Assembly: GCA_025284135.1 (NCBI GenBank)
Contig: GCA_025284135.1_3646.1
Length of the DNA stretch: 64,000 bases
Reading direction: 5' to 3' (one strand)
Source of the DNA: a phage
Below are positions 16,503 through 37,217 of this stretch, piece by piece (the stretch's first letter is position 1; every line of letters begins with the position of its first letter). The position numbers and the translations under genes were made by a program. Under the pieces are notes generated by a model. The model had not been told where the DNA came from. It worked only from the letters and a program-made list of their open reading frames with translations, and searched no databases.

Positions 16503-16540
16503 AGGGCCGGATTCCTTTTCTGGGATCTGGCCCTTTTTAT
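16503..16540 (+). terminator. terminator-like hairpin
   Basis: GGGCCGGAT..ATCTGGCCC stem followed by TTTTTATT. Confidence 0.4.
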
Positions 16541-16552
16541 TATGAGGAAACC

Positions 16553-18889: not shown

Positions 18890-18897
18890 TAAACTGT

Positions 18898-18932
18898 GCA
18901 GGGGGCTCCGGGCCCCCTTTATTTTATCGGTG
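18898..18932 (+). terminator. rho-independent terminator
   Basis: GGGGGC-TCCG-GGCCCCC followed by TTTATTTTAT. Confidence 0.6.
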
Positions 18933-18961
18933 TTGTAAAAACAGCTATTTTATGATACAAT
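18933..18961 (+). promoter_or_regulatory. sigma70-like promoter TTGTAA-N17-TACAAT
   Basis: Promoter-like hexamers directly after the terminator, upstream of the first post-tape-measure gene. Confidence 0.4.
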
Positions 18962-18994
18962 ATCTAGATGGTATCGGAGTGTCCTGGAGAGGTT

Positions 18995-19879
18995 ATGCCA
19001 AGCAATATAGTTGATGAAAAAGACCTGTACAAGCCTCAAGAGGTTAAATCTCCAAAGGCTGAAAAGGCAGAGCAGCAAACTGAAAGCGATGTAAAGTACA
19101 CTATGTTTGTCAGCGGTCTTAACTATGGTGGTCGCAATACGGAGATGAAGGGTAAAAACTTTACTAACGATCTTGCCATTATCTTCGACCAGGTTGAGAA
19201 CTATTCTTTCAAACATTCTGTTGATAAGACTGATTTTGCAGTGGAAGATAAATCTACCCTGTCAGACCACGCTGTAATTAAAGATGGTGTATTTTCTTTT
19301 ACTGGTAGGGTAAATACATCACCACATATAATCTATGAGCAAAACTACATTGACAGGAATACTGACTCTAAAAACCCTGCAGCATCTATGCGACCGGGCG
19401 CTGCACTGGAGGCTTTGACTGAAATCATTAATAAGCGCCAATTGGTTTCTTTGGTTACCGAGGAAAGACTCCTTGAGAACTACATTATAACCAGCCTTTC
19501 TGCCAGCAAGTCTGTTGGCGAAGGTGCTGCAATGGTTTTTGATGTAGAGCTTACAGAGTTCCGCACATTCTACTTGAACAAGGTTGTTAATGCAACTGTA
19601 TACAGCAATCCTAAGAAAGTAGGCAAGACCCAACAAAAAGGTGCTGTCAACGACTGTAAGAATGGTAGTAACGTAGGTAACAAGAGGGACACAGGAGCAT
19701 TCGCAGACACTGCATCCACAAACGCTGCAGAGGAGTGGCAGCCATACAAATCTATGATGTGGACAGATGAAAACGGTGTTACCCAATCGGCTGCGGATTG
19801 GTATTATCAGGAATATGGAAGACCTTCTACCATAGTCCCATCTGAGCAGGGAAACTACAACAAAGTTAACGGGAAATAA
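18995..19879 (+). CDS. baseplate or distal tail protein candidate (start moved to ATG 18995)
   Basis: ATG 18995 has GGAGAGG RBS; positional inference. Confidence 0.4.
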   Translation: MPSNIVDEKDLYKPQEVKSPKAEKAEQQTESDVKYTMFVSGLNYGGRNTEMKGKNFTNDLAIIFDQVENYSFKHSVDKTDFAVEDKSTLSDHAVIKDGVFSFTGRVNTSPHIIYEQNYIDRNTDSKNPAASMRPGAALEALTEIINKRQLVSLVTEERLLENYIITSLSASKSVGEGAAMVFDVELTEFRTFYLNKVVNATVYSNPKKVGKTQQKGAVNDCKNGSNVGNKRDTGAFADTASTNAAEEWQPYKSMMWTDENGVTQSAADWYYQEYGRPSTIVPSEQGNYNKVNGK

Positions 19880-19891
19880 GGGGAGCGTATA

Positions 19892-20272
19892 ATGGAGCTT
19901 AAAGATTGGTGCATAATCACCTTTGTGTGGGACATTGACGGCTTTCCTGATCAAACCATGCGTGTTGTTTTAGACAACGAAACGTATGAAATGCGTATGC
20001 AATGGAATGAGAGGGATGAGTCTTGGTGGTTATCTCTTGGTCCAGTAGGTGACAGCCCTTTAGTAACCAGAAAAGTAACAGCTTGTCAAGATATCTTAGA
20101 CGGACTGCATTATAGAGACGATTTACCGAAAGGTAGATTGATGGCACTGTCGTTTAAAGATGATCAATATTGGGGCAGGGTTGGAAGATACAACCTTGGA
20201 GCAAGATCCGAGCTACAACTTGTATACGGCACCCCAGTTGATCTTTACAAGGAACAGCAAGGGTTAGAATAA
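19892..20272 (+). CDS. baseplate-associated small protein
   Basis: AAGGGGAG RBS; position. Confidence 0.4.
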   Translation: MELKDWCIITFVWDIDGFPDQTMRVVLDNETYEMRMQWNERDESWWLSLGPVGDSPLVTRKVTACQDILDGLHYRDDLPKGRLMALSFKDDQYWGRVGRYNLGARSELQLVYGTPVDLYKEQQGLE

Positions 20273-21276
20273 TGGCAGAGTACAGACGTAGAACATGGCG
20301 ATTATTGTTTGGTCGTCCTGTAGAACATGGCGGTAAATCAAAAACCAATATCCCAAAATCTGTTGAAAAGAAAGGGGAGAGTGATTCCGGAGTTTATGAA
20401 GTTAGCTCAGACACTGGTGCTGCCAATATAGAGTTTGACATACAAAAGGACAATACCAAAGAGCCAAACAAAGGTTATGTGACAGTTTACAACCTGTCCG
20501 ACGATACAGTTAACTATCTGGATATGCATCAGGCTGATGCTCTTGCAGTTATGTTTGAAGCTGGCTATGATAATGAGAACCAGTTGATATTCTCCGGAAC
20601 TGTGGAGTTTGTTGAAGACAGATGGGAAGGTCCTACCAGAAAAACTAAGTTCATCTTTGGGGATGGCACTGAGAACATCATTAAGTGCCAAAGCACAAGA
20701 TCTTATCAGAAAGGCACACCTCTGAACTCTGTGCTTAATGACTTACTGAAGGATATGAACTTGCCAAAAGGTAGGGTTGTTGGTTTTGGAAACCAGACTT
20801 TGCAATACTCTATGGCTTTCTCTGGAAACACTGCAGAGAACCTCCGCAGGTTTGCAAGGCTGACCAACTCAACATTTAGCGTTCAGGATGGGGCTTTGTA
20901 TTGGACCAAGGTTGGAAAAAGGTTCAAAGACTCTGTGTTTGAAATAAGCGCAGAGTCTGGGATGCACGGATCTCCTACCCCTAAAAACCCAGAACCTGCT
21001 AAAAAACGAAAAGCTAAAGCTGCTGCCAAAGGTGGTTCGACATCTAAAAAGAAAAAGAAAAACCCGAGAGAGGATGTTGGCCTTACTGTAACCACATGCC
21101 TTAACGGAGCTATCCTCCCAGAGTCCACTATTTATCTTAAAAGCAAGCAATATACAGGCTTCTATAAGGTGATCACGGTGCATCATAAGGGCACCATAGA
21201 AGGTGGTGATTACACTACAGAGCTTGGCCTTGGGGAAACAGTGGGTGGAGTTGTTGACAAAACTGAGGAGGTATAA
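20272..21276 (+). CDS. baseplate protein (possible hub component)
   Basis: 334 aa with Lys-rich patch KKRKAKAAAKGGSTSKKKKK; position. Confidence 0.4.
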   Translation: MAEYRRRTWRLLFGRPVEHGGKSKTNIPKSVEKKGESDSGVYEVSSDTGAANIEFDIQKDNTKEPNKGYVTVYNLSDDTVNYLDMHQADALAVMFEAGYDNENQLIFSGTVEFVEDRWEGPTRKTKFIFGDGTENIIKCQSTRSYQKGTPLNSVLNDLLKDMNLPKGRVVGFGNQTLQYSMAFSGNTAENLRRFARLTNSTFSVQDGALYWTKVGKRFKDSVFEISAESGMHGSPTPKNPEPAKKRKAKAAAKGGSTSKKKKKNPREDVGLTVTTCLNGAILPESTIYLKSKQYTGFYKVITVHHKGTIEGGDYTTELGLGETVGGVVDKTEEV

Positions 21277-21953
21277 TGGCAATAAATAGGAAAGATGCTG
21301 CTGTAAGATCCTTCATAGAAAAAATAATGAGGGACTACCACACCAGTATCAGGGCCAGAGTTGTCAGTGTAGACTACAGTATCCCTTCTGCATCTGTGCA
21401 GCCAATAGCTGAAACCACGTTTGATGACGGAGATGTGGAGAGATACCCCCTTATCTATGACGTTCCAATTCAGGTGATGTCTGCAAACAGCGGAAAGGCA
21501 AGGTTAACACTTCCTATTAAGGCCGGAGATGTTGTAGGATTGCAGTTTTCAGAGAGGAATGAAAACAATAACGACGATCAACAAACTCACGGCCTGTTTC
21601 CAGGGTGGGCAATCACCTCCGTTCATTCAGACTCAAACGCTTTACAGATCGATCCTGATAACGTAGAGTTATGGAATGATAGGGTTTATTTTAAACTGAC
21701 ACCTTCTGGCGATTTTGAGCTTCAGACACCGGGTGGAACATTACGGTGCGACAGCAGCGGGGAGTTTTCTTTCACTAACGGTGCTGCCAATTTGCGAGCT
21801 GCTGTGGATGGAAATATCAGAATGAATGGTGCCACAATAGACCCATCTGGTAGAATTATAACTGCTGCTGGCGTGGATTTGGATTCATTCTATGCAGAAT
21901 ATAAAGGTCATACCCACTCTTGCCCTGATGGCGAGACAAGTGGACCGCACTAA
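21276..21953 (+). CDS. baseplate central spike-like protein (gpV-like)
   Basis: N-terminal OB-fold-like region; C-terminal GHTHSCPDGETSGP with HxH metal-binding-like motif typical of spike apex. Confidence 0.45.
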   Translation: MAINRKDAAVRSFIEKIMRDYHTSIRARVVSVDYSIPSASVQPIAETTFDDGDVERYPLIYDVPIQVMSANSGKARLTLPIKAGDVVGLQFSERNENNNDDQQTHGLFPGWAITSVHSDSNALQIDPDNVELWNDRVYFKLTPSGDFELQTPGGTLRCDSSGEFSFTNGAANLRAAVDGNIRMNGATIDPSGRIITAAGVDLDSFYAEYKGHTHSCPDGETSGPH

Positions 21954-25995: not shown

Positions 25996-28900
25996 ATGGC
26001 TGATATTAAAGTTGTCAGAATTGAATCTCTTCCTGCCACTACCGCAGTGACAGAGGATGATTACCTGGTTGTTCAACAACCAGACCTGACCCGTCGTGTA
26101 AAAATTGGCGATGTTGTCCATGTTGATGGGACTGTTTCTCATGTAATCTCCTTTAAGGAAGGTGGTAAGTTAAACGGCCCAATGGATTTTGCCTACTTCG
26201 AAGAGGAAGACCTCTACCTGCGTTGGAAAGGCGAATTTCCGCACACTGTTCCTGCACTATCTTCACCGTACTCCGATGGCGGGATTACTGACGCTGCATG
26301 GATGGTATATACAGACCCGTCATTAAGGGAGGAGCTGGAATCTACCATTGGCGCATCTATGATCATGACAGCCGAAGGGCAGTCTGTCCAGGATGTAATG
26401 GATGTTACTGTTCAGACAGCTAACGATGCCAAAGCACTTGCACAGCGTGTAGATTTTGGTACAGTGCACACTGTAGGCGATGTTATTCACCTTGATAACT
26501 TTGTTGGCCCTGCAGTTATTGAAGAGGGAAGAACTACCAACTACCCTTCTGCAGCAGCTGGTGAAAAATTTCTGAACGGTGTGGTATCTCGTCGTGATAC
26601 TACAACTGTTGATGGTATTTTCCGTGGCGCTACCTCCGGAGCCATGTATACCATTGCAGTAACCAACGGTGTAGCAACAACAAAAAGAATAGCACTTCGT
26701 GATGAATTTAAACGCCTGGAGGCAAACAACCCAACAAGAACAGTTATCCGTGCTGGAGATGATTTAAACACGGCAGGGTACTTGCAGCTTGATGCAACAG
26801 GCCGTTGGGGTATGTGGAACCAACAAACAGCCTCGTGGCAACCTCTTGCTATAGAGCAAGGCGGTACAGGGGCCAGAGATGCCGCTGGAGTCCGTATCAA
26901 TATCGGGGCTTTCTATAAGCAACGTGCAGCCCTTGAGCCAAATTTCAATATCAATAACTTGACTGGTAATCAGGATGGTGTATACTACCAGCCGATGACT
27001 GCTTATGCAACTGAGGCAAATGGTTATCCTGCAGGTTCTGGTGCTGGTCACTTGATTGTTTGGCAGAACAATGCTAACGGTGGTACAGGTTGTCGTCAGG
27101 AATACTATCCATTCTCTAACGTAGATGTTTGGTATTTGAGAACCTATCAGGCCAATACAAACCAGTGGACTGCATGGCAGCCGATGGTCAGACCTCGTAA
27201 CGATGATACCTTTAGATCGCACATCGGCCTTGGTAAAAACAACTCACCAGCCTTCGGGCACCTTTACTTAGCTCAATACTCTGGAGATGTCAAATCGGCC
27301 TCAGGTATTCTCCATGGAGATAAATATAACACTGATGGTGTTCTTGAGCATGGCTATAGGATCTATTCTGAGGTAAGAAACGACAATAAGGCTTGGTTGA
27401 CAATCCACCTGCACAAAGGTGCAAAAGGATCTGAAACCCATAGATATTTAGGCTTCCGTGAGGATGGGGTCTTAGATTGTCCTAAATATATGCAGGTTGG
27501 TGATCTGAACGGTCAGATGGCAAACTGGGGACTTGGAGAATGGATCCGCAGTTCAGGAGCAGAAAGAGGTTTCTGGGGATCTAAGAAAGCCGCCAAGATG
27601 GTCATCTGGGATGGCGGTATGGACGAGCAAGGTGAAGGAACGCTTGAGTGGGGTGTTTATAACAACCGGAAAGCCAAATGGGAACCACTACCGATAGCTT
27701 GTGGTGGTACCAGTGCCAGGACTGTAGGGGATGCTCAAGCACAATTCAGAATCCCTCTGGCAGCAGGTACTAGACCATATGTAAACCTGCCTAGAACTGC
27801 AGCTATGCAGGACGGTAAGTATTATCCTATTATCGTCAGAACTGACCCCAACTTTGCAGCAACTATCGGGACAGATTTAACCATTGTCACCAGATCTTCT
27901 TCTGGCGGCGACCCAATGAACTGTGCTACACTACAGTGTCACTACAGAACTGGTGGCTGGACAGACAGAGGTGATTCTTTCCAAGGGGTTATTAATTTCT
28001 ACCAAAACGAGAAAGCAATCCTCGGATGTGTATCTCCAACCAGAGGTAAGCAGGAGTATGTTGCATTCTATGTAGAGGCACGTGCATTCCCTGTTACAGT
28101 ATATGCTGGTGCTACTGTAATAGAAGTGTCAACCAGGGAGGTTGATTGGCAGGTAGGCAACGTGACAGGTAACCAAGATGGTGTCAAGTTCTGTGCTCCT
28201 CTGGCATCTGCAGATTTGAGTCTTGCAATCAAAGGTGATGATGTAACAAACACCAGACCTCTGGTTGAGTTCAAAGGAACATCAGGTTTCTACACTGGTG
28301 GTGGAACTATGTGGCACTACCTGGGGACTCCTGAACGCTATGCAGTGATGAGCAAAATGAACATGCCTAAAGTCGAGCTTTGGGCAGACGGTATTGACTA
28401 CATTTGTCCTGGTAGTCAGACCACTAGAAAAGCACTGTTCTCTAACGCAGGGTTCCAAGCTGCATCGGAAGGAACAGAGGATCTGATCAACAACACCTTT
28501 ACCTCTAAATGTGGTAATGGTGCAAGACTGCAAGGCCAGGCAGAGTTCAGATCTACTCCGGAAGCTGGTCAAGTTATCGTTCGCGATGTTGTAGGTACAG
28601 CTCATAAGTTCTACAATTTCAACAAAGACGGCACATTTTTCCCTCCTGGAGGCTATGTTTGCCAGACAGGCGCTGACTGGAACAATCAGTTTGGTAATAC
28701 AAACCCCTCCAAGATAATGGCTGGCAATGTCAACGGGCCGGAAGGTTCGATGGTTGTTGGAGGACTGTCTGTGGCGTTTTCTGGAAACTATGCTTTCCAA
28801 ATGGCTGGTCGCCTTGATCAGTTATACACCAGATCTATCGAGGGTGGTAACCATAGGGCATGGAACAAAGTTATTCAGCACCGTGGTCAAGGTCTGGGGA

Positions 28901-29808
28901 CAGAAGACCTTAATAACTACGATGGTAGCCGTGAAGGTTTCTATCACCAGGGTTCAAACGCTGACGCACTTGTAATAGCTCGTCACTACCCTGCTCCGTA
29001 CGCTGGTACGCTGCTTGTTTACAAAAACACAGCCAACAGACCGCAAGGTTGTGTGCAGGAATACATTACCTATTTTGGTGACAGATATACTCGTGCTGGT
29101 AACTACGTTGGCGATGTCTTTACTTGGGAAGAATGGAGACACGATGCTGGTAAGGGCATTCAGTTAAGACCTAATTACAATTTCGGTGAAAACAGTACTC
29201 AGCTGGAAATTCATGTTGGTGCTAATGGTCTTCCATCCAACGCCGATAACTTACCTACCAACAGTGCTATACTCCATTATTGGGGTAACGGCAGTGCAGG
29301 GACTCGTCCAAACGTGTTAGAGTTTAAGGTTCTTGACGAGTCTCAATCGGCTTATGTATGGCATTGCGGTACCTTGCCGGATAAATCAAGATATCTTTCT
29401 GTAAACGGTGCTGTGAATTGCACATCTGTCAATCAGAGTTCTGACAGAGACCTGAAAGATAACATATCTGTTATTCCTGATGCGTTAGAAGCTATCCGGA
29501 AGATGAAGGGTTATACTTACACTCTTAAAGAGAACGGTATGCCTTATGCAGGTGTTATAGCACAAGAAGTGCTTGAAGCGTTGCCGGAAGCAGTTAGCTC
29601 TTTCGTGCAAAGAAAGGAAATCCCAAACCCTGATCAAGATGGAACTCCTTTGATAACAGAGGAAAGATTCTACAGCGTGGATTACGCAGCCGTAACAGGC
29701 TTGCTTGTCCAGGTTTGCAGGGAACAGGACGATAAAATAACCGCCCTTGAGGAGCAGGTTAAAAAATTGACGGAGGTTGTTACTGGGTTGCAAGAGAAAC
29801 TGAAGTAA
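25996..29808 (+). CDS. tail fibre protein with C-terminal intramolecular chaperone (peptidase S74-type)
   Basis: C-terminal SSDRDLKDNISVIPDALEAIRKMKGYTYTLKENGMPYAGVIAQEV matches the autoproteolytic chaperone signature; N-terminal anchor domain shared with ORF 22692. Confidence 0.8.
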   Translation: MADIKVVRIESLPATTAVTEDDYLVVQQPDLTRRVKIGDVVHVDGTVSHVISFKEGGKLNGPMDFAYFEEEDLYLRWKGEFPHTVPALSSPYSDGGITDAAWMVYTDPSLREELESTIGASMIMTAEGQSVQDVMDVTVQTANDAKALAQRVDFGTVHTVGDVIHLDNFVGPAVIEEGRTTNYPSAAAGEKFLNGVVSRRDTTTVDGIFRGATSGAMYTIAVTNGVATTKRIALRDEFKRLEANNPTRTVIRAGDDLNTAGYLQLDATGRWGMWNQQTASWQPLAIEQGGTGARDAAGVRINIGAFYKQRAALEPNFNINNLTGNQDGVYYQPMTAYATEANGYPAGSGAGHLIVWQNNANGGTGCRQEYYPFSNVDVWYLRTYQANTNQWTAWQPMVRPRNDDTFRSHIGLGKNNSPAFGHLYLAQYSGDVKSASGILHGDKYNTDGVLEHGYRIYSEVRNDNKAWLTIHLHKGAKGSETHRYLGFREDGVLDCPKYMQVGDLNGQMANWGLGEWIRSSGAERGFWGSKKAAKMVIWDGGMDEQGEGTLEWGVYNNRKAKWEPLPIACGGTSARTVGDAQAQFRIPLAAGTRPYVNLPRTAAMQDGKYYPIIVRTDPNFAATIGTDLTIVTRSSSGGDPMNCATLQCHYRTGGWTDRGDSFQGVINFYQNEKAILGCVSPTRGKQEYVAFYVEARAFPVTVYAGATVIEVSTREVDWQVGNVTGNQDGVKFCAPLASADLSLAIKGDDVTNTRPLVEFKGTSGFYTGGGTMWHYLGTPERYAVMSKMNMPKVELWADGIDYICPGSQTTRKALFSNAGFQAASEGTEDLINNTFTSKCGNGARLQGQAEFRSTPEAGQVIVRDVVGTAHKFYNFNKDGTFFPPGGYVCQTGADWNNQFGNTNPSKIMAGNVNGPEGSMVVGGLSVAFSGNYAFQMAGRLDQLYTRSIEGGNHRAWNKVIQHRGQGLGTEDLNNYDGSREGFYHQGSNADALVIARHYPAPYAGTLLVYKNTANRPQGCVQEYITYFGDRYTRAGNYVGDVFTWEEWRHDAGKGIQLRPNYNFGENSTQLEIHVGANGLPSNADNLPTNSAILHYWGNGSAGTRPNVLEFKVLDESQSAYVWHCGTLPDKSRYLSVNGAVNCTSVNQSSDRDLKDNISVIPDALEAIRKMKGYTYTLKENGMPYAGVIAQEVLEALPEAVSSFVQRKEIPNPDQDGTPLITEERFYSVDYAAVTGLLVQVCREQDDKITALEEQVKKLTEVVTGLQEKLK

Positions 29809-29814: not shown

Positions 29815-29842
29815 TGCCCTCGCTTCGGCGGGGGCTTTTTGT
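29815..29842 (+). terminator. rho-independent terminator (CGCTTCGGCG family)
   Basis: GCCCTCGC-TTCG-GCGGGGGC followed by TTTTTGTTTG. Confidence 0.65.
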
Positions 29843-29847
29843 TTGTA

Positions 29848-29876
29848 TTGCGTATTAACTCAAAATCTGGTAAAAT
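29848..29876 (+). promoter_or_regulatory. sigma70-like promoter TTGCGT-N17-TAAAAT (TGG before -10)
   Basis: TGGTAAAAT extended -10-like element 17 nt from a TTG -35. Confidence 0.4.
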
Positions 29877-29907
29877 AACTATCATGATTGTTTAACCTGG
29901 AGGCACA

Positions 29908-30498
29908 ATGTTTTTATGGGAAAGGCCTAGATACCTTCCAGATATTAGATTGGAGCTGCTGGCAGATATTGTTACGTTTAAAAGTCCGTTTACAGGTAAA
30001 ACGCAAAAAGTAACCTATGCCACACCTAACTGGAAAGGCACTTTGACGGTTTCCAATATCAGCGAGTCACAGTTGCTAGAGCTTAAGAGCTTTGTTGATC
30101 AGGTGTATAAAGATGGAAACATCTTTCTTATTAAAACTTACGGTCACTCAGTAACAGCTAATGAGCCAATCGCCCTTGGGCCTACTGGTAACGATGATTT
30201 TTTGAGGACGGTTGGGTGGGAGCCAAACAGAGACATAGCCAGAGTTGGGGATAAAATATCTGTCAATGATGAATTGAAAGTGGTAACAGCTCCAGTGCGT
30301 AGCGATGGTGTTGGGTCTGCTGTTATAAGCATATCTCCAAGACTTAGAAAACCTATTGCCGCAGGGGACACTATGAAGATAATAACTCAATCCCCGAAGG
30401 GTAGGTTTCATATCAGAGATATTTATAAAATTAAGCAAAAAGTCGATGCTATGCAAAAAGGTGATAATATAGTTATCAACTTCTTTGAGGATTTCTAA
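29908..30498 (+). CDS. minor tail protein (tail-tip complex, first of four)
   Basis: Gene order and sizes (196, 184, 142, 1381 aa) resemble lambda/GTA-type tail-tip sets. Confidence 0.4.
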   Translation: MFLWERPRYLPDIRLELLADIVTFKSPFTGKTQKVTYATPNWKGTLTVSNISESQLLELKSFVDQVYKDGNIFLIKTYGHSVTANEPIALGPTGNDDFLRTVGWEPNRDIARVGDKISVNDELKVVTAPVRSDGVGSAVISISPRLRKPIAAGDTMKIITQSPKGRFHIRDIYKIKQKVDAMQKGDNIVINFFEDF

Positions 30499-30499
30499 G

Positions 30500-31051
30500 A
30501 TGATCAGAGCGCCATTAGATAATTTATTTCTTGAAAAGCTGGAGCTTGATGGTGTTGAGATCTTAATTGCTGCAAAGCTGGAGCTACCGACAGGAACTGT
30601 CAGGGTGTGCTCAGGCACTGGTGTTGTAGTAATTGAGGGGCAACATTTTATAGGGATAGGTGGGTCAGCAACATTAACCGCTGTGTCTGAGAAAGATGCC
30701 ACCAACTTCGGATCTGTGGTAGCGACATTGAACGGGTTTGATCCTAAGTATGTGGGTGATCTGCTGAAGACTGAGTATTCTGGTTGTCGTGCCACGTTGT
30801 ACATTACCGCTATGGAGAATGGTCTGCCTGTTACAACTAATGGCTTGTTTGACGGCCTTATAACAGATATGGCTATTCAGACGGGTGAGAATAGCGCTTT
30901 GTCCATATCCATCTCTTCCATCTTCAACAGTTGGTTAAGAGGTTTTCCTTATCGGTACACGGAGGAAAGCCACAGCTCAAGAAACGATAACGACAGATTT
31001 TTTAAATATGTGGATCAGGTGGCGAGCCGCCCGATCATTTGGGAGGTTTAA
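30500..31051 (+). CDS. minor tail protein (start moved to ATG 30500)
   Basis: ATG 30500 has GAGGA RBS; position in four-gene set. Confidence 0.4.
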   Translation: MIRAPLDNLFLEKLELDGVEILIAAKLELPTGTVRVCSGTGVVVIEGQHFIGIGGSATLTAVSEKDATNFGSVVATLNGFDPKYVGDLLKTEYSGCRATLYITAMENGLPVTTNGLFDGLITDMAIQTGENSALSISISSIFNSWLRGFPYRYTEESHSSRNDNDRFFKYVDQVASRPIIWEV

Positions 31052-31476
31052 TGAGCACACATCCTCGTCTAGTGGACTGGCAAGAAAGATTGTGGAAAGT
31101 GTTTGACGAAGAGGCCACCATACCTTTTGAATGGGGATTCCACGATTGTTGCACCTTTGCAGCTAAGTGTGTTGATGCCCAATACGGAACAGATTTTCTT
31201 TCTAACTTCGAAGGAACGTATAAAACAGAGTTGGAAAGCAAAAGATGGTGCATGCTCCGTTTCAAAACCACACACCTGCCTACTATTTTTGATCTCTTTA
31301 TGACTCGGCTGGATACTCCTAAACAGGTTCAGCGTGGAGATATTGTCATTTTCGAAGGTCTGAACGGCCTCACCGCCGGTGTGTTCTGGAACAACCAGAT
31401 TTGGGCGAAAGGTGATAAAGGGGTCTTTATGTTCGATATGAAAGATTCTATCGTTGTTGATGTCTGGAGGTATTAA
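31051..31476 (+). CDS. tail protein with Cys/His motif (NlpC/P60-like) (start moved to ATG 31051)
   Basis: HDCCTF motif plus downstream His; GGGAGG RBS; precedes gpJ-like gene. Confidence 0.45.
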   Translation: MSTHPRLVDWQERLWKVFDEEATIPFEWGFHDCCTFAAKCVDAQYGTDFLSNFEGTYKTELESKRWCMLRFKTTHLPTIFDLFMTRLDTPKQVQRGDIVIFEGLNGLTAGVFWNNQIWAKGDKGVFMFDMKDSIVVDVWRY

Positions 31477-34400
31477 TGCCAATTGCAATGATTGATAACA
31501 TCGTTGCTTCTGCAAGATCTTCAAGTTATGACTGGAACGCATCCAAGGCAGCTCTGGCTGACAGCCTGAACACTGTTACCACCAGAACTCTGGATAAGAT
31601 TTTTGAGGGCAACAAATCTTACAGAAGTCAGCAAGATAGACAAAAGCTTCTCAGATCTTCTGCTGCACCCTGCTCTGTAGTGTATGGAAAGACACGCACA
31701 TCTGGATTGCTTGCGTTTTTGGAGCAGGATAGAGACAAAACCCTCCATTGTGCTATTGTTCTTGCCAATCACCCTCTGGAAGGTATAGAAGATATACTTA
31801 TCGACGGTAATCCGATTTCCTCGTATGGAGATCTGGTATCGTGGGAGCTACATAACGACAGAAAAACATCTGATCCTTTCATGGGTACACACTGCCCATC
31901 ATGGTCACCAGACATGATAGGTAGAGGGATCAGTTGGCTACGTGCCAGCTTCAGGTTTGACCCTAACAAGTTTCCTTTTGGGTTGCCAAACGTTACACTT
32001 GTCAAGGTTGGTAAAAAATGCTATGATCCTCGTATCAGTAAAGAGGTGTATACCAATAACGCGGCCTTGGTGATTCTGGACTATTTAAGAACGTACCTTA
32101 AATGTCCTGACGAAACCATCAACTGGGAGTCCTTCAAGGAGGCTGCCAACATATGCGATGAGGCGGTAAAAAACGCTGACGGAACCAGTGAGCGCCGTTA
32201 CACAATTAATGGCGAGTTCGATATGGATGAGGCTCCAGCAAGTATTATGGCAGAAATGCTGAAAGCTTGTGGAGCAGATCTCAGCTATGTAGCTGGTAAG
32301 TATGGTTTGCTGGTCGGTGCATATTATGGTCCGGCAACAATGACACTGAGTGAGGATTGTGTCTGCGGTGAGGTAAAGATCTATCCGGAAGCCTCATTTG
32401 ACAAAAGATCCAACACAATAACTGGCAGATTCACTAGTCCGACCAAAGGGTATTCTGAAACAGATTTTCCATCAGTGTTTGTCCCAGAGTGGATAGAGAA
32501 GGATGGAGAAAGAAAGATAATCGATATAGACTATCGCTTTGTTACCAGTCCTTATCAAGCTCAACGTGTTTCTGCAATCTTCCTAAGACGTGCCAGAGCT
32601 GGCAGGATTATTGAAGTCACCTGCAATATGCGAGGTTTTAAATTTAAGCCTGGCCGTTACGTTACAATGAATCTTCCAAGTATTGGTATAGTAGGCCAAG
32701 AAATGAGGGTTCTTGAATGGGAGTTCACCAAAAAGGGTGGTGTCAAGGTAAAACTTCGTCAAGATGCTAAAGAGTGGAATGATGCCACAGGGCAACTTCC
32801 GGATTCTGGTGATGTAGATATTCCGATATCTCCATCTGGTGTAGCTCAACCGCAAAACTTCAGATACTCCGTCCTCCAAGCTGGGGAAATAACTCACGGT
32901 GTTCTGGCTTGGGACAACGTTGGGACTTACGCTCAAAATATTGTGCAGGTAAGAAAGAACGGAGAGATTGTTTGGACAGCACAGACAGTTGAGCAGTTTG
33001 TCCGAGTAGAAGGCTTGACCAAGGGGTCATACACAGCAACCGTGGTTGCAACATCTTATAAAGGTGGTGTATCTCCAGAAGCGTACTGCGAGTTTAACAT
33101 TCAGGCACCTGAAGCTCCTGTTTCTGTAGAGGTTAAGCAGGGATACTTTGCTATCACCTTGATTCCACACAGCAGGGATTTAGCAAGTGTAAGCACCCAG
33201 TATGACTTTTGGACATCTGGTATGACAAGGTTGCCCGACACCAGCGATGCAACCGTTACTTCAAACGCCACCCGTATGGGTGTTGGTTCAACTTGGACAT
33301 CCGAAGGTCTGCAGAACGATAAGGTTTATTATTGGTATATTCGAACCACAAACGCTTTTGGTAGCTCTCAGTTTGTAGAGTGTGCTGCACGCTGCTATAC
33401 CTCCATTGAGGATTTGATGCCTCAGATAGATGCTGAATTCAAAAAGACAGAAACTTATAAAGAGTTGATGAGCACTTTGGATTCCTCTATTGAAGAGGTT
33501 GAAAATCGTGTCACAGAACTTAACAGGTACATGGATGGTAGAGTTGACGAGGCTTTTGACCACATGGAAGGTGAGTTCTCTAGAGTAGACAAGCTGTATG
33601 CTCAGTTGGGAGATAGGGTTGGAATATTCATCCAAGAAACCCACGACAACTTCCAGGACGTTAATGGAACGCTTACCACTCTAGATCAGAAACTGGTAGC
33701 CACTCAGAACAAGTTTGCAGATGATCTTTCTAAAGAAAGTGGCAAGCTTGCTTCTCTAATCCAGACCACTAACAAAGCTACAACCGATCTGTTAAATCAG
33801 AAAACTGAAGCTTTGGACGAGAAGATTGTTTCAACCAGGGGTGAGTTGGAAGATGCTTTAGCGCAGGAAAGCTCTGAGCTGAACTCCCTGATTGTATCAA
33901 CCAATAAAACGACTACAGATCTCCTTAATCGGAAAACCGAGGCTTTAGACAATAAGCTGACGGCAACGAAAGGTGAGTTGACCAACAATCTGCAGAATGA
34001 GAGTGCTAAACTATCGTCCTTGATTGAGTCAACCAACAAATCCACCACTGATCTTCTTAATAAGAAAACAGAGGCGTTGGATGAAAAACTGGTTGCTGCA
34101 CAGGGCGAGTTGACTGAGCAGATCGGAGATGTTGAAAAAGGCTATCTGGCTGGTGATAAGAGCCTAGAGGGCAAGTTGAATACTCAAAGATCTGAGTTGG
34201 ATGCGAGCATTCTGAGCACTAACCAGGCCACTGTGGACTTGCTGAACAGAACTTCTGAGACTCTTGACCAGAAGATTAGCCAGACCAACGCCACAGTGTC
34301 CAAAAACTACACCACGCTTGATGGTAAGATAAACACCGCCAAGTCTGATCTTAATACGTTGATTTCTACCACCAACAAGGCCACAACTGACCTGTTGAAT

Positions 34401-35621
34401 CAGAAAACGGCAGCTTTGACTGAGCAGTTAACCACTGCTAAAGGGCAGATTACAACCAACACCAATAATATTACTGGGTTGGACAATAAGCTGACTCAGA
34501 CTAAGAAAGATTTGTCTGCGAATATTTCTGAAACTAATAACGCCACTGTTGATCTGATTAACGGCACAGCGTCAGCTATTCGTCAAGAACTTGCTGTTGC
34601 TAAGCAGGAGATCATTGATGGTGTTGGTGATGTGTCCGAGATCAGGGCTGCAGTAGCTACAACAGCTAAGGCTGTAACCGACTTGGAGGGTAAAGTAAGT
34701 GCTCAATGGGGCACAAAAATACAGGTAGACTCCGCAGGGAATAAATATGTTGCAGGTATCCAGTTGGGGATGGAAGGGTCTGGGGGCCAAGTTCAATCCT
34801 ACTTCATGGTTAGTGCAAACAATTTTGCGGTATACAACCCTGGCAATGGAACAGCAACCCTTGCTTTTGCAATCAAGAACAACCAAGCGTTCTTGAAAGA
34901 CGCTTTTATAGAGAACGGGACGATTTCATCTGCCAAGATCGCACAAGAAATCTCGTCAAACAACTACGATGGCAACGGGTACCATAAATACGGTTGGTAT
35001 ATTAACAAGAACGGGCACGCCCAATTTATGGATGTGTGGGTGAAAGGCAACATCAACGCTAGTTCTGGTAACTTCACAGGGGCAGTTAACGCCACTAGTG
35101 GTACCTTCCGTGGGGATGTTTATGCCAATAATGGTAGCTTTAGAGGCACCATAGATGCAACCGGAGGTACCTTCCGTGGTCGTGTAGAAGCTTCTGTTAT
35201 CCGTGCTAACCAGTTCGAAGGTGCAATTGTTGCGCACAGGACTTATGGGGATTGTGCTCCAGTATATAACTCCCGGCAAAGGGTTTGCCGTTGGAGGTGG
35301 AGATACGTAGATAACGTTTCAGGTCAGGGTAAGAACGTAACATTCTTCTTTAAACTGAATGGTACTCTTGCCAGCTCCCAGCTCAACGTTTGGATAGCCG
35401 GACATCAAATCCTTGCAGGTAAGAAGTACGGAAACGACAACAACGGTATGTGTGCGGTAGGGATAACAGGTCTTGGTGAACAAACCATAGATATTGTTGT
35501 TGAAATCTACACACCATGGTCAACGTCTTCTGTAACAGGGGTCGCAATATCCTGTCCTACTGTTGTGGTAAGCCGTTCTAACTCAAGCTTCCAGGGACCT
35601 TGGAACGAGTCTCACGACTAA
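31476..35621 (+). CDS. central tail fibre / host-specificity protein (gpJ-like N-terminus, coiled-coil repeat shaft, GxFxG C-terminal repeats)
   Basis: N-terminal about 600 aa resemble gpJ-type tail-tip region (HCAIVLANHPLEGIEDILIDGNPI); six or so about 44-aa repeats (TNKATTDLLNQKTEALDEK...); C-terminal SGTFRGDVYANNGSFRGTIDATGGTFRG. Confidence 0.6.
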   Translation: MPIAMIDNIVASARSSSYDWNASKAALADSLNTVTTRTLDKIFEGNKSYRSQQDRQKLLRSSAAPCSVVYGKTRTSGLLAFLEQDRDKTLHCAIVLANHPLEGIEDILIDGNPISSYGDLVSWELHNDRKTSDPFMGTHCPSWSPDMIGRGISWLRASFRFDPNKFPFGLPNVTLVKVGKKCYDPRISKEVYTNNAALVILDYLRTYLKCPDETINWESFKEAANICDEAVKNADGTSERRYTINGEFDMDEAPASIMAEMLKACGADLSYVAGKYGLLVGAYYGPATMTLSEDCVCGEVKIYPEASFDKRSNTITGRFTSPTKGYSETDFPSVFVPEWIEKDGERKIIDIDYRFVTSPYQAQRVSAIFLRRARAGRIIEVTCNMRGFKFKPGRYVTMNLPSIGIVGQEMRVLEWEFTKKGGVKVKLRQDAKEWNDATGQLPDSGDVDIPISPSGVAQPQNFRYSVLQAGEITHGVLAWDNVGTYAQNIVQVRKNGEIVWTAQTVEQFVRVEGLTKGSYTATVVATSYKGGVSPEAYCEFNIQAPEAPVSVEVKQGYFAITLIPHSRDLASVSTQYDFWTSGMTRLPDTSDATVTSNATRMGVGSTWTSEGLQNDKVYYWYIRTTNAFGSSQFVECAARCYTSIEDLMPQIDAEFKKTETYKELMSTLDSSIEEVENRVTELNRYMDGRVDEAFDHMEGEFSRVDKLYAQLGDRVGIFIQETHDNFQDVNGTLTTLDQKLVATQNKFADDLSKESGKLASLIQTTNKATTDLLNQKTEALDEKIVSTRGELEDALAQESSELNSLIVSTNKTTTDLLNRKTEALDNKLTATKGELTNNLQNESAKLSSLIESTNKSTTDLLNKKTEALDEKLVAAQGELTEQIGDVEKGYLAGDKSLEGKLNTQRSELDASILSTNQATVDLLNRTSETLDQKISQTNATVSKNYTTLDGKINTAKSDLNTLISTTNKATTDLLNQKTAALTEQLTTAKGQITTNTNNITGLDNKLTQTKKDLSANISETNNATVDLINGTASAIRQELAVAKQEIIDGVGDVSEIRAAVATTAKAVTDLEGKVSAQWGTKIQVDSAGNKYVAGIQLGMEGSGGQVQSYFMVSANNFAVYNPGNGTATLAFAIKNNQAFLKDAFIENGTISSAKIAQEISSNNYDGNGYHKYGWYINKNGHAQFMDVWVKGNINASSGNFTGAVNATSGTFRGDVYANNGSFRGTIDATGGTFRGRVEASVIRANQFEGAIVAHRTYGDCAPVYNSRQRVCRWRWRYVDNVSGQGKNVTFFFKLNGTLASSQLNVWIAGHQILAGKKYGNDNNGMCAVGITGLGEQTIDIVVEIYTPWSTSSVTGVAISCPTVVVSRSNSSFQGPWNESHD
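33700..34650 (+). repeat. in-frame degenerate tandem repeats (about 132 nt units) encoding coiled-coil shaft of ORF 31476-35621
   Basis: Repeated ACCAACAA(A/G)(G/T)C(C/T)AC(A/T)AC(C/T)GAT CT..T(T/G)AAT..GAAAAC.GA(A/G)GC.TTGGA blocks seen at about 33770, 33900, 34030, 34370. Confidence 0.7.
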
Positions 35622-35628
35622 CCTTTAA

Positions 35629-35656
35629 AGCCCCGCTTCGGCGGGGTTTATTTTTA
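35629..35656 (+). terminator. rho-independent terminator (CGCTTCGGCG family)
   Basis: CCCCGC-TTCG-GCGGGG followed by TTTATTTTTAT. Confidence 0.65.
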
Positions 35657-35664
35657 TGCTCAGA

Positions 35665-35693
35665 TTGACTATTGTTACAAAATTTGGTAAAAT
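35665..35693 (+). promoter_or_regulatory. sigma70-like promoter TTGACT-N17-TAAAAT (TGG before -10)
   Basis: Near-consensus hexamers with extended -10-like TGG. Confidence 0.5.
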
Positions 35694-35726
35694 ACCTTGT
35701 AGAGATTTTCATACCGGAGGAGTGAC

Positions 35727-37217
35727 GTGGCTAAGTATGGATTGACAGAGGCTGGTTTCGTTATACCAACCCTAAATGACCTAATCGTTGAAACTAAGCA
35801 AAGCCTGATCCGTGCTTTTGGCGAAAACTTCAACGTACAGAGTAACTCCGTTGCAGATAAGCTGACCACTATCTTCAACGAGCGAGAGTATCAACTTATT
35901 CTTATGGCAGCATCTGTATATGCATCACAGACGCTGTATGGGGCAGAAGGTATTTACCTAGATGAGCTTCTTGGAAGACAGGGTATTTACCGAAGAGGCC
36001 GTTCTAAATCATCAGGTACCTGCCAGTTGACAATCAACACAACTGTGCCGTACAATATGATTTATGATTCCAAAACTTATACGCTGGACAGTGGCAACTT
36101 TGTTCTTAGCAACGATGTGCAAGTAGCAGGGAATCTTATTGCTCACAGAATAAATGCTCCAGACCTAAGGATTGGGAAATACAACTTCCAAATTACCAAC
36201 CAGACAGATGGAAGTATCAAAACAAAAAGCCTGGTTTTAACAGATAAGTCTCTGGACTCTTCTGATTTGCCAAGCTTTTACGGAGAGATTAAGCAATTCA
36301 TTGTCGATAATACAACTCTGTTGAACGACGATTTGATTCAAATCGATATGTTGACAGGAACGTTGTGGATAGGGTACAATTCGAATCTTGATCAGGTTGG
36401 ACTTAATAGTAGGGTAGATTTCAGAGTATCCCCGATTGTAGGGGAAAGAACTATCACTCTAGATGTTATCGCTAACGAGGCTGGTGAGCTGTCAAGGGAG
36501 GCAGAAACCGTGACAACAATGTCGCCTACCCCCAGCGGATTTATTAAGCTTACCAACCGAGAAAGATTCAATGAGGGAAGGGATGTTGAAAAAGACTCAG
36601 AGTATCGCTTAAGAGCTTCCAGCACAAAACAGTTAACATCGAAGGCTACCCGTCCTGCAATCCTTAGCGCTGTAAGCGAGGTAAAAGGTGTTGAGAAAGT
36701 GAGAGTGTTCTCCAACAACACCGATAAAACTGATGCTAAAGGTATACCTCCTTACAAGTTCCAAGTGGTTGTGTTTGGTGGTGCAACGGAGGACATTTGC
36801 CAAGCACTTTACCAAACTATAGCCTGTACGAACAGGACTTATGGTAATATTTTCTACGATATCGCTACATCTGACGGTCAAACTGAAAGAATTTATTACT
36901 CCAGGGCAAATACCTACCGCCTAGATGTAAGAATTACCTATTCCGGCGCTGCGCTTTCCACAACCGAAAAAGATGCCATTGTAGAGGCTCTTTTGCAGGT
37001 TGTTAACGGACTTGATGTTGCAGATACGTTGTACAATATCCAATTGGTCGGTGCTGCATCCGCTGCTGTGTCGATAGGTAGATTTAATAGACTGGTAATT
37101 CAAGTTAAACCAGTAGGAGCTTCTGATGAAGCTTACACGACAAACGATATTGTTGCGAACATGACCGAGGTGTTTGACCTCGACGAAAGTAATATAACTT
37201 TCCAACAAACTATTTAA
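35727..37217 (+). CDS. virion/tail-fibre module protein (496 aa)
   Basis: GTG start with GGAGG RBS; lies in fibre module; no diagnostic motif. Confidence 0.4.
   Translation: MAKYGLTEAGFVIPTLNDLIVETKQSLIRAFGENFNVQSNSVADKLTTIFNEREYQLILMAASVYASQTLYGAEGIYLDELLGRQGIYRRGRSKSSGTCQLTINTTVPYNMIYDSKTYTLDSGNFVLSNDVQVAGNLIAHRINAPDLRIGKYNFQITNQTDGSIKTKSLVLTDKSLDSSDLPSFYGEIKQFIVDNTTLLNDDLIQIDMLTGTLWIGYNSNLDQVGLNSRVDFRVSPIVGERTITLDVIANEAGELSREAETVTTMSPTPSGFIKLTNRERFNEGRDVEKDSEYRLRASSTKQLTSKATRPAILSAVSEVKGVEKVRVFSNNTDKTDAKGIPPYKFQVVVFGGATEDICQALYQTIACTNRTYGNIFYDIATSDGQTERIYYSRANTYRLDVRITYSGAALSTTEKDAIVEALLQVVNGLDVADTLYNIQLVGAASAAVSIGRFNRLVIQVKPVGASDEAYTTNDIVANMTEVFDLDESNITFQQTI

Follow-up and report, generated by a model that had tools for sequence, protein, structure and literature searches.

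Genes 29908-35621 of the phage DNA studied here (the window, 64,000 nucleotides in full) appear to form a complete siphovirus tail-tip cassette, encoding a Dit-like protein, a gpL-like 'hub-1' protein, a DUF6950 protein with NlpC/P60 fold, and a J-like protein. We consider it rather probable that the cassette serves as an acquired accessory adhesion fibre, and not as the tip of the central channel. The 5.7 kb tested are 94-98% identical at the nucleotide level to 119 phage records, nearly all Vequintavirus, and synteny with EduardKellenberger holds at the protein level from the sheath gene through the wedge gene. By this identity and synteny with type members, the source phage belongs to the genus Vequintavirus, the rV5-like E. 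coli myoviruses.

The four consecutive open reading frames that a sequence-only reading had picked out are present on the + strand where it had put them; its 184 and 142 aa for the second and third products correspond to 183/188 and 141/145 aa. The genes and their surroundings are as follows:

25996..29808, + strand, fibre of 1270 aa with a Tail_spike_N docking domain and an S74 chaperone domain, directly upstream of the cassette
29816..29845, + strand, upstream boundary hairpin, intrinsic-terminator-like (GCCCTCGCTTCGGCGGGGGC plus a T-run; 8 pairs, 7 GC), directly after the 1270-aa fibre gene
29862..29877, + strand, promoter-like 16-mer of extended -10 type (AAAATCTGGTAAAATA), then a GGAGG ribosome-binding site and the ATG at 29908
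29908-30498, + strand, Dit-like distal tail protein, 196 aa (phrog_1302 'distal tail protein', E 8e-50)
30485-31051, + strand, gpL/DUF2163-type 'hub-1', 188 aa from TTG or 183 aa from the ATG at 30500
31039-31476, + strand, DUF6950, NlpC/P60 fold, 145 aa from TTG or 141 aa from the ATG at 31051
31476-35621, + strand, J-like tail-tip/fibre protein, 1381 aa (phrog_31 'central tail fiber J', E 1.5e-161), orthologue of rV5 gp37
35628..35659, + strand, downstream boundary hairpin, intrinsic-terminator-like (AAGCCCCGCTTCGGCGGGGTTT plus a T-run), after the J gene
35679..35694, + strand, promoter-like 16-mer, copy 2 (AAAATTTGGTAAAATA), upstream of the wedge gene
35727..37217, + strand, baseplate wedge subunit (Baseplate_J), directly downstream of the cassette

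The PHROG and Pfam matches bear out the earlier suggestion of a lambda/GTA-type tail-tip set in a contractile-tail genome. The set had also been described as downstream of the tail genes, which is too simple: it starts at 29908, 11 kb after the end of the tape measure gene at 18889, with eight baseplate/fibre genes and a terminator between, and it forms its own terminator-bounded unit. Its slot follows a full myovirus baseplate and has fibre genes on one side and the wedge gene on the other. It does not adjoin a tape measure gene as in non-contractile tails, and a sheath gene is present in the genome. The promoter-like 16-mer occurs only twice in the window (29862 and 35679), against 0.25 occurrences expected by chance, and Seunavirus and Mydovirus have a single equivalent terminator-promoter unit, before the wedge gene. 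It appears that the cassette is an autonomous unit, with a terminator-promoter unit of similar look on either side.

A complete contractile tail core is predicted at 13741..21953 (+):

13741-15117, + strand, sheath (phrog_205 'tail sheath', E 9e-118; Pfam DUF3383)
15128-15601, + strand, tube (ORF 15128 matches KPP10_Orf10, tube family)
between tube and tape measure, + strand, chaperones
16553-18889, + strand, tape measure (ORF 16553 matches TMP_3)
18968-19879, + strand, tube initiator
19892-20272, + strand, plug
20272-21276, + strand, hub
21276-21953, + strand, central spike, Fe-apex-type

The assignments follow Pfam/PHROG matches, the EduardKellenberger annotation, and the phi92 cryo-EM assignments (PMC13450770). 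The sheath/tube/chaperone/tape-measure order read earlier from the letters is confirmed by phrog_205, KPP10_Orf10, and TMP_3. With genes for sheath, tube, tape measure, tube initiator, plug, hub, spike, and wedge in the window, the virion is contractile, and rV5 itself is reported to be a myovirus by electron microscopy (PMC3606486). By homology with phi92, the initiator, hub, and spike would occupy the tube end in the source phage. The name 'central fibre', which the sequence-only reading had used, is therefore unlikely to be appropriate, because hub and spike take the central position. The likeness to phi92 (PMC13450770) covers sheath, tube, initiator, plug, hub, spike, sheath initiator, and wedges, as well as a multi-fibre adsorption apparatus. 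However, phi92-like phages have no Dit/L/K/J cassette, and thus the solved phi92 baseplate ('Swiss army knife', PMC13450770) cannot locate the complex.

The first gene product is predicted to be Dit-like. It is 31% identical to, and collinear over its full length with, the 196-aa protein encoded directly after the tape measure of Nonagvirus ChristophMerian, and about 48 further loci carry a collinear homologue directly after the tape measure. It has no Pfam, NCBIfam, or PDB sequence match, and a homologue search with Dit alone returned only near-identical Vequintavirus proteins and one 32% match. The second product, L, is encoded just upstream in the module and has the fold of lambda gpL and DUF2163 hub proteins, with no Pfam or NCBIfam family assigned. 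It lacks the conserved C-terminal GSKKDAPxFxY tail of siphovirus homologues: in the homologue alignment the C-terminus is at least 7 aa longer in 58 of 61 sequences, most ending in KKDAPxFxY, and the remaining three add 0-1 aa (the one checked, P0070, is Vequintavirus-like). Lambda gpL holds a four-Cys Fe-S site. Such a site is not possible in L, since it has two Cys only.

The third, K-like product lies between L and J, has the NlpC/P60 fold, and is the positional equivalent of lambda gpK and GTA g14. The 'HDCC Cys/His motif' pointed out earlier is found at residues 35-38 of the 145-aa frame (nt 31141-31152), but in the family its first Cys alone is invariant and its His is not conserved. The catalytic Cys and His of active NlpC/P60 (C40) enzymes were not found as a pair, Cys33 being invariant and no His being conserved (13 or 89 homologues); the strands at the MepS-type His positions, placed by secondary-structure order and not by superposition, read LTAGVF and QIWAK. 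None of the three small proteins gave a match against PDB, either as single sequences or as 13-16-member profiles, nor did a search with the concatenated Dit+L+K alignment give matches. When the Dit, L, and K family alignments were compared with lambda gpM, gpL, and gpK by hhalign, the probabilities were below 3%; therefore, the lambda link for L and K rests on fold, not on sequence.

The 1381-aa product had been read as a gpJ-like protein with an inserted coiled-coil repeat region, and both its 55% identity to Nonagvirus J and its phrog_31 match agree with that description. Its parts are:

31476..32945, + strand, N-terminal hub region, aa 1-490 (tblastn; COG4733 and HHpred in the rV5 paper)
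32952..33431, + strand, two Ig/FN3-like J domains, aa 493-652 (Pfam Ig_J, Ig_J_second)
33408..34655, + strand, proline-free coiled-coil shaft, aa ~645-1060 (alignment gaps against lambda J and Nonagvirus J)
33633..34658, + strand, shaft repeat array, 6-7 units, starting at aa 720 (degenerate), 764, 808, 852, 914, 965, and ~1018
34650..35072, + strand, lambda-J-type central fibre domain (Phage_Tail_Tip), aa 1059-1199 (Pfam PF09327, E 4e-39)
35067..35180, + strand, four GxFxG beta-type units, aa 1198-1235, within the stretch aligned with lambda J 849-990
35193..35618, + strand, distal C-terminal domain, aa 1240-1381, conserved within the genus

The hub region, Ig/FN3 domains, and central-fibre domain of a large J-type protein are thus all present. 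The N-terminal 660 aa are J-like: aa 48-713 share the identity with Nonagvirus J (BLASTP), and the protein matches lambda gpJ (8iyk) at E 1.5e-27 and NCBIfam lambda_TipJ at E 6e-43, below the model cut-off. The Ig/FN3 region is 30% identical to lambda J 666-850, and the central fibre domain aligns with lambda J 849-990 and matches gpJ C-terminal fragments in PDB (8xcj, 9wca; E 1e-23). For rV5 gp37, COG4733 and HHpred similarity to the Mu-type hub 3CDD were reported (PMC3606486).

The shaft has no Pro in 411 aa and shows weak matches to coiled-coil families (Apolipoprotein, DUF7217, SpiroCoCo). Compared with lambda J it is an insertion, and it is longer than the corresponding part of Nonagvirus J. 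The six 44-aa repeats proposed earlier are real as repeats but not a clean 6 x 44: the anchors from 764 to ~1018 are spaced 44, 44, 62, 51, and ~53 aa apart. Pairwise identity among units 764, 808, 852, and 965 is 41-61%, the background being ~8%, and the repeats are visible at the protein level only, as Tandem Repeats Finder detected no DNA-level tandem array in 33000-35621. Repeat number differs among relatives, as had been anticipated; the protein has 1381 aa here, whereas the rV5 and EduardKellenberger proteins have 1279 aa, two 44-aa units and a further 14 aa making up the difference. The predicted GxFRG-type repeats correspond to the four GxFxG units. The distal domain is presumably the receptor-binding end. 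By tblastn, identity over aa 1190-1381 is at least 90% in 115 records and 80-90% in a further two (V18, 84%); beyond the genus it drops to 29%, with the J of Seuratvirus JenK1.

Among known systems, the closest likeness is to Queuovirinae (Nonagvirus ChristophMerian/9g and Seuratvirus), in which TMP-proximal proteins of 196, 194, and 138 aa are followed by a J-like protein in the same order as in the window, with a shared J N-terminus and a shared NDCC/HDCC motif. In contrast to these phages, the set in the window is not beside a tape measure or tube gene but is flanked by fibre and wedge genes and bounded by terminators, its J has ~330 extra coiled-coil repeat residues and a different distal domain, and its tail-less L and its Dit are markedly more diverged than J and K. 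Compared with lambda (gpM, gpL, gpK, gpI, gpJ; 8iyk), gpI is lacking and there is no ORF between K and J; the K-like protein is a single domain without the JAB/MPN half and without a conserved catalytic His; L does not have four Cys; and Dit (196 aa) has no detectable sequence similarity to gpM (109 aa). The hallmarks of a specifically lambda-type tail tip (gpI, JAB/MPN in K, four-Cys L) are thus absent. Whereas the FN3 domains of lambda J abut the fibre domain, ~380 aa of coiled coil lie between them here. The RcGTA and GTA-like set consists of g12 DUF2460, g13 DUF2163 hub, g14 NlpC/P60 peptidase, and g15 megatron (e.g. roseophage R4C, 8gtc). The window L (183-188 aa) is without the second domain of g13 (267-272 aa), and an RcGTA-type set was not recognised, the matches to DUF2460 (E 0.17), PF09931 (E 0.002), and NLPC_P60 (E 0.023) being sub-threshold and from single members.

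The J homology has been partly noted before, as COG4733 in 2013, in PHROG labels, and by RBPseg in 2025. The orthologue rV5 gp37 was described as a 1279-aa tail protein (PMC3606486), and in a 'TC5' fibre of Vequintavirinae an N-terminal region 'common in central tail fibers' was noted, together with a long coiled coil and, at the C-terminus, a beta-helix (PMC12143355). Both papers treat the large protein alone, as one among many fibres; the available text of either describes neither the three small upstream genes nor the relationship to the Queuovirinae cassette, and neither the absence from sister genera nor the virion location of the cassette (PMC3606486, PMC12143355).

All four cassette genes are under strong purifying selection, with dN/dS of 0-0.085 (Dit 0.053, L 0.000, K 0.025, J-N 0.024, J-C 0.085; wedge 0.024 and sheath 0.073). 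A decaying relic is ruled out by these values. Every siphovirus homologue of Dit and L shares 28-38% identity with the window protein, those homologues being ~40-53% identical to each other, and J-N and K are not divergence outliers.

A possible assembly can be described as follows. A J trimer would be capped by an L trimer and a Dit ring, as in a siphovirus (that Dit6-L3-J3 forms without tape measure or tube is an assumption), with the K-like protein as an assembly factor or minor component. The Dit-L-J complex would then be the anchoring knob of an accessory adhesion fibre, and would no longer close the tail tube because the phage's own tube initiator, hub, and spike occupy the central axis. 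The expanded coiled coil may form a shaft of ~60 nm, varying in length by gain or loss of 44-aa repeats, and the business end may consist of the lambda-J-type beta-fibre and the genus-conserved distal domain. Thin fibres of ~70 nm on rV5 (PMC3606486) and a cryo-EM density without assignment on a fibre end of a Vequintavirinae phage (PMC12143355) count among the points in favour of such a fibre. Dit and L, which face the tube and tape measure in siphoviruses, may have diverged fast after transfer; their divergence and the loss of the L tail would fit re-tooling for a new docking partner, either the baseplate periphery or another fibre. Alternatively, the fast divergence could reflect descent from another donor that has not been sampled.

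That Dit-L-J sits on the tail axis, sleeved over the gp138-type spike tip as the complex normally surrounds the tape-measure C-terminus, is unlikely. It would then act as a lambda-like central fibre with 3 J copies per virion, which senses a receptor and comes off or opens up either ahead of contraction or in its course. In favour of such a cap, J occupies a central position in all known siphoviruses, and the whole ring-forming set (Dit, L), not just the fibre, has been kept, all under purifying selection. The 5 spectra (4.2% coverage) obtained for gp37 by mass spectrometry of rV5 virions fit few copies per virion, but the published table is too shallow for stoichiometry, the sheath itself giving only 15 spectra (PMC3606486). 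The spike, moreover, keeps the Fe-apex-type architecture meant as a membrane-piercing tip; five to six thin fibres of ~70 nm, not one, were seen on rV5 by electron microscopy (PMC3606486); and no central cone and no J-type tail-tip complex are reported in the available text of the RBPseg cryo-EM study of two Vequintavirinae phages (Bas49/Bas54), in which three of nine fibres were placed and density without assignment was left on the end of one of them (PMC12143355). It is decidedly improbable that a Dit ring with L and J trimers forms a lambda-like axial cap over the spike as a receptor-triggered tip that gates contraction.

There is also little likelihood that the products are not part of the virion and instead function within the host cell during infection or as unattached complexes, whether by scaffolding the assembly of other fibres, by serving as a decoy, or, for the NlpC/P60-fold protein, in lysis. 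Lambda gpK, which is an assembly factor and is not known to be a major virion protein, would be a precedent. The three small proteins (gp38-40) were not seen in the shallow 19-protein virion dataset of rV5 (PMC3606486). However, 4 peptides of gp37 were detected in CsCl-purified virions in that dataset (PMC3606486), one of which, high-scoring and tryptic, occurs in the J-like protein of the window. Furthermore, the latter has a full fibre architecture and a conserved distal domain, and the cassette lies in the late structural cluster and shares its promoter motif with the wedge operon. An accessory adhesion fibre remains the reading that we prefer.

As for the origin, homology, synteny, and distribution together point to acquisition. 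The cassette proteins are 31/37/47/55% identical (BLASTP) to those encoded directly after the ChristophMerian tape measure, collinear and near-equal in size, and the order TMP, Dit, L, K, J recurs at ~48 IMG/VR loci (siphovirus-type contigs) and in Vibrio phage K449. By tblastn, the J N-terminus is at least 95% identical only in Vequintavirus (117 records; wedge orthologues reach this level in 118 records). The next class, of 350 records, is below 60%, the best being 57% in Queuovirinae siphoviruses; the rows inspected are genomes of 29-128 kb, and in the two examined in detail, ChristophMerian and K449, the cassette comes right after the tape measure. Eight relatives, which represent seven sister genera (Mydovirus with two phages, Seunavirus, Certrevirus, Henunavirus, Justusliebigvirus, Phapecoctavirus, and Plateaulakevirus), gave no match to Dit, L, K, or J in their tail regions at E<=0.01. 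For the fibre slot the KNP2 RefSeq record was left out and KB57 used in its place. The KNP2 record is open in three frames at 10495-16674, which suggests a masked stretch.

Most probably, an ancestor of this one genus acquired the cassette horizontally from a siphovirus lineage near Queuovirinae (Nonagvirus/Seuratvirus). The cassette would have entered the variable fibre slot, which has the sheath-initiator gene on one side and the wedge gene on the other, as a late unit with its own transcription signals. It is very improbable that the cassette was ancestral to Vequintavirinae and lost in all other genera. Losses would be plausible, since that slot is highly variable among genera, but seven or more independent ones would be required, and the sister genera keep no trace of the cassette while their core genes are 50-85% identical to the window. 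Moreover, at the other loci examined the cassette always follows a tape measure, and J-N and K fall among the siphovirus sequences, with Nonagvirus the nearest (58% and 48%), at a distance as small as that of siphovirus lineages from each other.

An ordinary siphovirus tail tip on a non-contractile virion, with ORF 13741 as the major tail protein, had been allowed for in the sequence-only reading and is refuted, with no point found in its favour, by the phrog_205 sheath match, the full hub, spike, and wedge set, and the genome identity to rV5-like myoviruses, whose tails are contractile by electron microscopy (PMC3606486).

rV5-like phages are common candidates for therapy and biocontrol. In the usual understanding, tail-tip complexes (Dit, hub, J/Tal) form the end of the tail tube. 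The phage studied here keeps a complete set although its tube already ends in another one, of myovirus type. Should the complex be part of the virion, which we think likely, a whole tail-tip organelle would be transplantable between tail types and reused as an adhesion module, and the phage would offer a natural system for finding the Dit/gpL-like surfaces that dictate docking. If it were the axial cap, the virion would be a structural hybrid of both tail types, with a siphovirus-type tip on a myovirus contraction machine. The correspondence between genes and fibres in rV5-like phages is described as unsettled (PMC8594841, PMC12143355). The cassette is a defined, deletable candidate both for a fibre without assignment and for the RBPseg cryo-EM density, and gain and loss of its 44-aa repeats may provide a natural series of fibre lengths.

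The cassette consists of four consecutive genes, which the sequence-only reading had placed at the same coordinates and which ORF calling confirmed; in the second and third ORFs, TTG starts lie a few codons 5' of the ATGs.

29908-30498, plus strand, Dit (distal tail protein)
30485-31051, plus strand, L (gpL-like protein)
31039-31476, plus strand, K (DUF6950, NlpC/P60 fold)
31476-35621, plus strand, J (1381 aa; orthologue of the 1279-aa gp37 of phage rV5)

In a nucleotide search, this 5.7-kb region showed 94-98% identity to 119 phage records, nearly all of them E. coli Vequintavirus myoviruses such as VB-EcoM-WM, BP9, and EduardKellenberger. Eighteen GenBank 'Campylobacter phage' records (MG0656xx) with C. 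jejuni as host are 96-97% identical to the same Vequintavirus region; probably their host label is wrong or the samples were contaminated. By tblastn, J residues 1-500 are found at 95% identity or more only in Vequintavirus (117 records). The next-best matches (57%) are in the Queuovirinae siphoviruses ChristophMerian, SLUR76, slur01, and 9g, and identity falls further across other siphovirus-sized genomes. In ChristophMerian, the tape measure gene is directly followed by genes for 196-, 194-, and 138-aa proteins and an 879-aa 'J-like tail tip protein', in the same order as in the window and with identities of 31% (Dit), 37% (L), 47% (K), and 55% (J). Fifty-two cassette loci were found in IMG/VR, and all those long enough to judge have the order tape measure (~950-1160 aa), Dit (~197 aa), L (~194 aa), K (~132 aa), and J; a fibre gene 5' and a wedge gene 3' of the cassette were seen in Vequintavirus contigs only. 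The cassette is likewise linked to the tape measure in Vibrio phage K449 (83 kb).

Dit matches phrog_1302 'distal tail protein' (E 8e-50), and J residues 497-684 and 1064-1228 align with lambda J residues 666-850 and 849-990, respectively, each with 30% identity. The sequence profiles of Dit, L, and K gave no connection to lambda M, L, K, or any solved chain; Dit is a putative assignment from the PHROG match and synteny only, and L and K are linked to lambda-type proteins by predicted fold. From the siphovirus comparison, the phrog_1302 match, and the lambda gpJ matches, it follows that this is a bona fide siphovirus tail-tip cassette ending in a protein with a gpJ-like N-terminal region, as had been proposed from the sequence. 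The lambda tip is encoded by five genes, whereas the window set has four, gpI being absent and K consisting of one domain, an organisation in common with GTA-type and Queuovirinae tips. L matches phrog_2048 only at positions 173-359 of the 390-position profile; in some phages an L homologue may be fused to another N-terminal part, possibly Dit-like.

In the window, the cassette lies 11 kb 3' of the tape measure gene, with the whole baseplate core and three fibre genes in between, and directly before the wedge gene.

13741-15117, sheath (phrog_205, E 9e-118; Pfam DUF3383)
15128-15601, tube (KPP10_Orf10)
16553-18889, tape measure (TMP_3)
18968-19879, tube initiator (Dit_like)
19892-20272, Pam3-gp18-type plug
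20272-21276, hub (phrog_196)
21276-21953, spike (gp138-type N-terminal domain)
22692-23360, 222-aa protein (Tail_spike_N (TSP1/Gp66) docking domain)
25996-29808, 1270-aa fibre (Tail_spike_N (TSP1/Gp66) docking domain and C-terminal S74 intramolecular chaperone domain)
between baseplate core and cassette, 865-aa fibre (third fibre gene)
35727-37217, wedge subunit (Baseplate_J)

The sheath, tube, and tape measure genes suspected upstream are thus present, and ORF 13741, for which a major tail protein had been the other option, is a sheath. The two Tail_spike_N domains suggest, by analogy, a branched fibre complex as in CBA120 and G7C. Further 3', a 690-aa fibre (37915-39987) shares its N-terminal and TIM-barrel domains with the 'non-contractile tail sheath' protein gp65 of N4; these phages reportedly bind the NGR glycan, with which such domains agree. 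At ~50000-58000, both GC skew and AT skew switch sign, marking a minus-strand gene block past the structural cluster.

Terminator-like hairpins with the common core CGCTTCGGCGGGG are present at both ends of the cassette (29816-29835 and 35628-35649). Each is followed 3' by the 16-mer AAAATNTGGTAAAATA, which has two sites only in the 64-kb window (0.25 expected by chance), and then by a GGAGG site; the flanking ~105-nt intergenic regions (29806-29910 and 35619-35729) are ~62% identical. In Seunavirus and Mydovirus, a single terminator and TG-TAAAATA unit precedes the wedge gene. The terminator-promoter-RBS units in the window look like a regulatory junction that the insertion duplicated. Eight relatives outside Vequintavirus, belonging to seven genera (Mydovirus KNP2 and KB57, Seunavirus SPLA5a, Certrevirus F2M1E, Henunavirus pEp_SNUABM_01, Justusliebigvirus PaulScherrer, Phapecoctavirus DIJ07P1, and Plateaulakevirus phiA019), had no homologues of Dit, L, K, or J at E<=0.01 in their tail regions. 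A ~6-kb stretch of KNP2 (NC_048647, 10495-16674) is open in three frames with no annotated CDS, probably reflects masking or a run of Ns in the database entry, and was left out of the fibre-slot comparison. Since a sheath-initiator-like gene adjoins the wedge gene in Certrevirus F2M1E and Henunavirus pEp_SNUABM_01 (~19350-20000), the position is a variable fibre slot, empty or filled across the subfamily. Taken together, the position, the flanking units, the single unit in sister genera, and the absence from the eight relatives indicate that the whole siphovirus operon was probably acquired once by the Vequintavirus lineage. It would have been inserted at the terminator/promoter junction preceding the wedge operon, and the best identity points to a donor near the Queuovirinae.

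The cassette genes are under constraint. With EduardKellenberger as reference, dN/dS is 0.053 for Dit, 0.000 for L, 0.025 for K, 0.024 for J residues 1-660, and 0.085 for the last 360 residues of J, values comparable to those of the wedge (0.024) and the sheath (0.073). The J N-terminus and the wedge are found at 95% identity or more in almost equal numbers of records (117 and 118). According to the rV5 report, gp37 was identified in purified virions (PMC3606486); its high-quality tryptic peptide GYSETDFPSVFVPEWIEK occurs in the window J, together with three weaker peptides. There, gp38-40 are not among the proteins detected, in a shallow analysis of 19 proteins in which even the sheath gave only 15 spectra (PMC3606486).

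The four proteins did not diverge evenly. The N-terminal part of J (58%) and K (48%) resemble Nonagvirus as closely as one siphovirus lineage resembles another, whereas Dit and L show 28-38% identity to every siphovirus homologue, those homologues being mostly 40-53% identical among themselves. In addition, Vequintavirus L stops right after a conserved Trp (nt ~31040-31051) and is without the GSKKDAP(G/P)F(T/R)Y tail present in all 15 siphovirus homologues of a smaller alignment. In a larger alignment, 58 of 61 homologues run at least 7 aa past the end of the window L, most ending in KKDAPxFxY; the remaining three add 0-1 aa, and the one checked (P0070) is Vequintavirus-like. In the solved siphovirus tips (lambda, T5, and GTA), Dit and the gpL-like protein form the layers facing the tube and the tape measure. 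Once uncoupled from the tube, Dit and L may have passed through relaxation and then adaptation, a course which the divergence and the tail loss fit. The divergence could also reflect a mosaic origin, with Dit and L from an unsampled donor.

J has the features of a long fibre. The anchor [ST]TN[KQ]xT[TV]DL[LI]N recurs at residues 764, 808, 852, 914, 965, and ~1018, with a degenerate copy at 720, and pairwise identity among the better repeat units is 41-61%, the background being ~8%. The repeats recognised in the sequence-only reading (about six) are real, but their supposed regular spacing of 44 aa is not, since the anchors are 44, 44, 62, 51, and ~53 aa apart; in the DNA they have diverged too far for Tandem Repeats Finder to detect them. 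Residues 650-1060 (411 residues) are without proline, and the GxFRG beta-type repeats noticed after the coiled coil are found as four GxFxG units at 1198-1235. Compared with lambda J, the FN3 domains are separated from the fibre domain by an insertion of ~380 coiled-coil residues, and the coil is longer by ~330 residues than in Nonagvirus J. At ~0.15 nm per residue, the shaft is computed to be ~60 nm, to which the beta-fibre and distal domain are added; the rV5 shaft is two repeats shorter. The rV5 paper describes five to six thin fibres of ~70 nm (PMC3606486), a length compatible with J, though not proof that they are J. Within the genus, J varies mostly in the coil (660-1020); identity in the hub and over the last 360 residues does not fall below 98%. 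For the distal domain, 115 records show 90% identity or more and another two, including V18 (84%), show 80-90%; outside the genus its only relative (29%) is in Seuratvirus JenK1. Given this conservation, the target of J is probably a conserved surface structure.

The HDCC motif noticed in the third ORF is located at residues 35-38 of K (nt 31141-31152). The K family (DUF6950) has 2092 representatives at 50% identity, and the first Cys of HDCC (Cys33) is the sole invariant residue across 89 diverse homologues, among which no conserved His was found, that of HDCC being variable. On the strands where MepS-type enzymes carry their pair of catalytic His, K has LTAGVF and QIWAK, as judged from the order of secondary structure in a model without superposition. 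Since a conserved His is missing, K does not qualify as a canonical Cys-His peptidase. Cys33, being invariant, argues for some chemistry or structural role, and the family may comprise pseudo-peptidases or users of non-canonical chemistry.

By homology, the tail axis is occupied by the window's own initiator, hub, and spike. A peripheral or fibre-borne position is therefore favoured for the cassette complex. In RBPseg cryo-EM of Bas49 and Bas54 (Vequintavirinae), only three of nine annotated fibres are resolved, and the TC8 fibre has unassigned density attached at its C-terminal head (PMC12143355), a concrete candidate site for the complex. A central cap over the spike on the tail axis has a low probability. 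A non-contractile virion, the fallback of the sequence-only reading, is refuted by the contractile-tail genes of the window, whose counterparts cryo-EM has located in the baseplate of phi92 (PMC13450770), and by the contractile tail that rV5 shows in EM (PMC3606486).

The individual genes have been noticed before. In 2013, rV5 gp37 was reported to be a tail protein, with a match to COG4733 and hub-like matches by HHpred (PMC3606486). PHROG-annotated GenBank records name the cassette genes 'distal tail protein', 'tail protein', and 'central tail fiber J'. In the BASEL paper, J is a 'lateral tail fiber protein with fibronectin type III domain', and the gene-to-fibre assignment is said to be unclear. 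RBPseg describes the N-terminal region of J as 'common in central tail fibers' (PMC12143355). In the open-access literature searched, no statement was found of a full siphovirus tail-tip operon with its nearest relatives in Queuovirinae, of its genus specificity, of a terminator-bounded unit, or of modified Dit and L, which is not proof of absence. The chimeric adsorption apparatus proposed earlier holds insofar as a siphovirus tip set is present in a contractile-tail genome; its fibre is probably not central, the axis being occupied. Overall, it appears that the siphovirus tail tip, a known organelle, has been kept in a new structural context within well-known phages.
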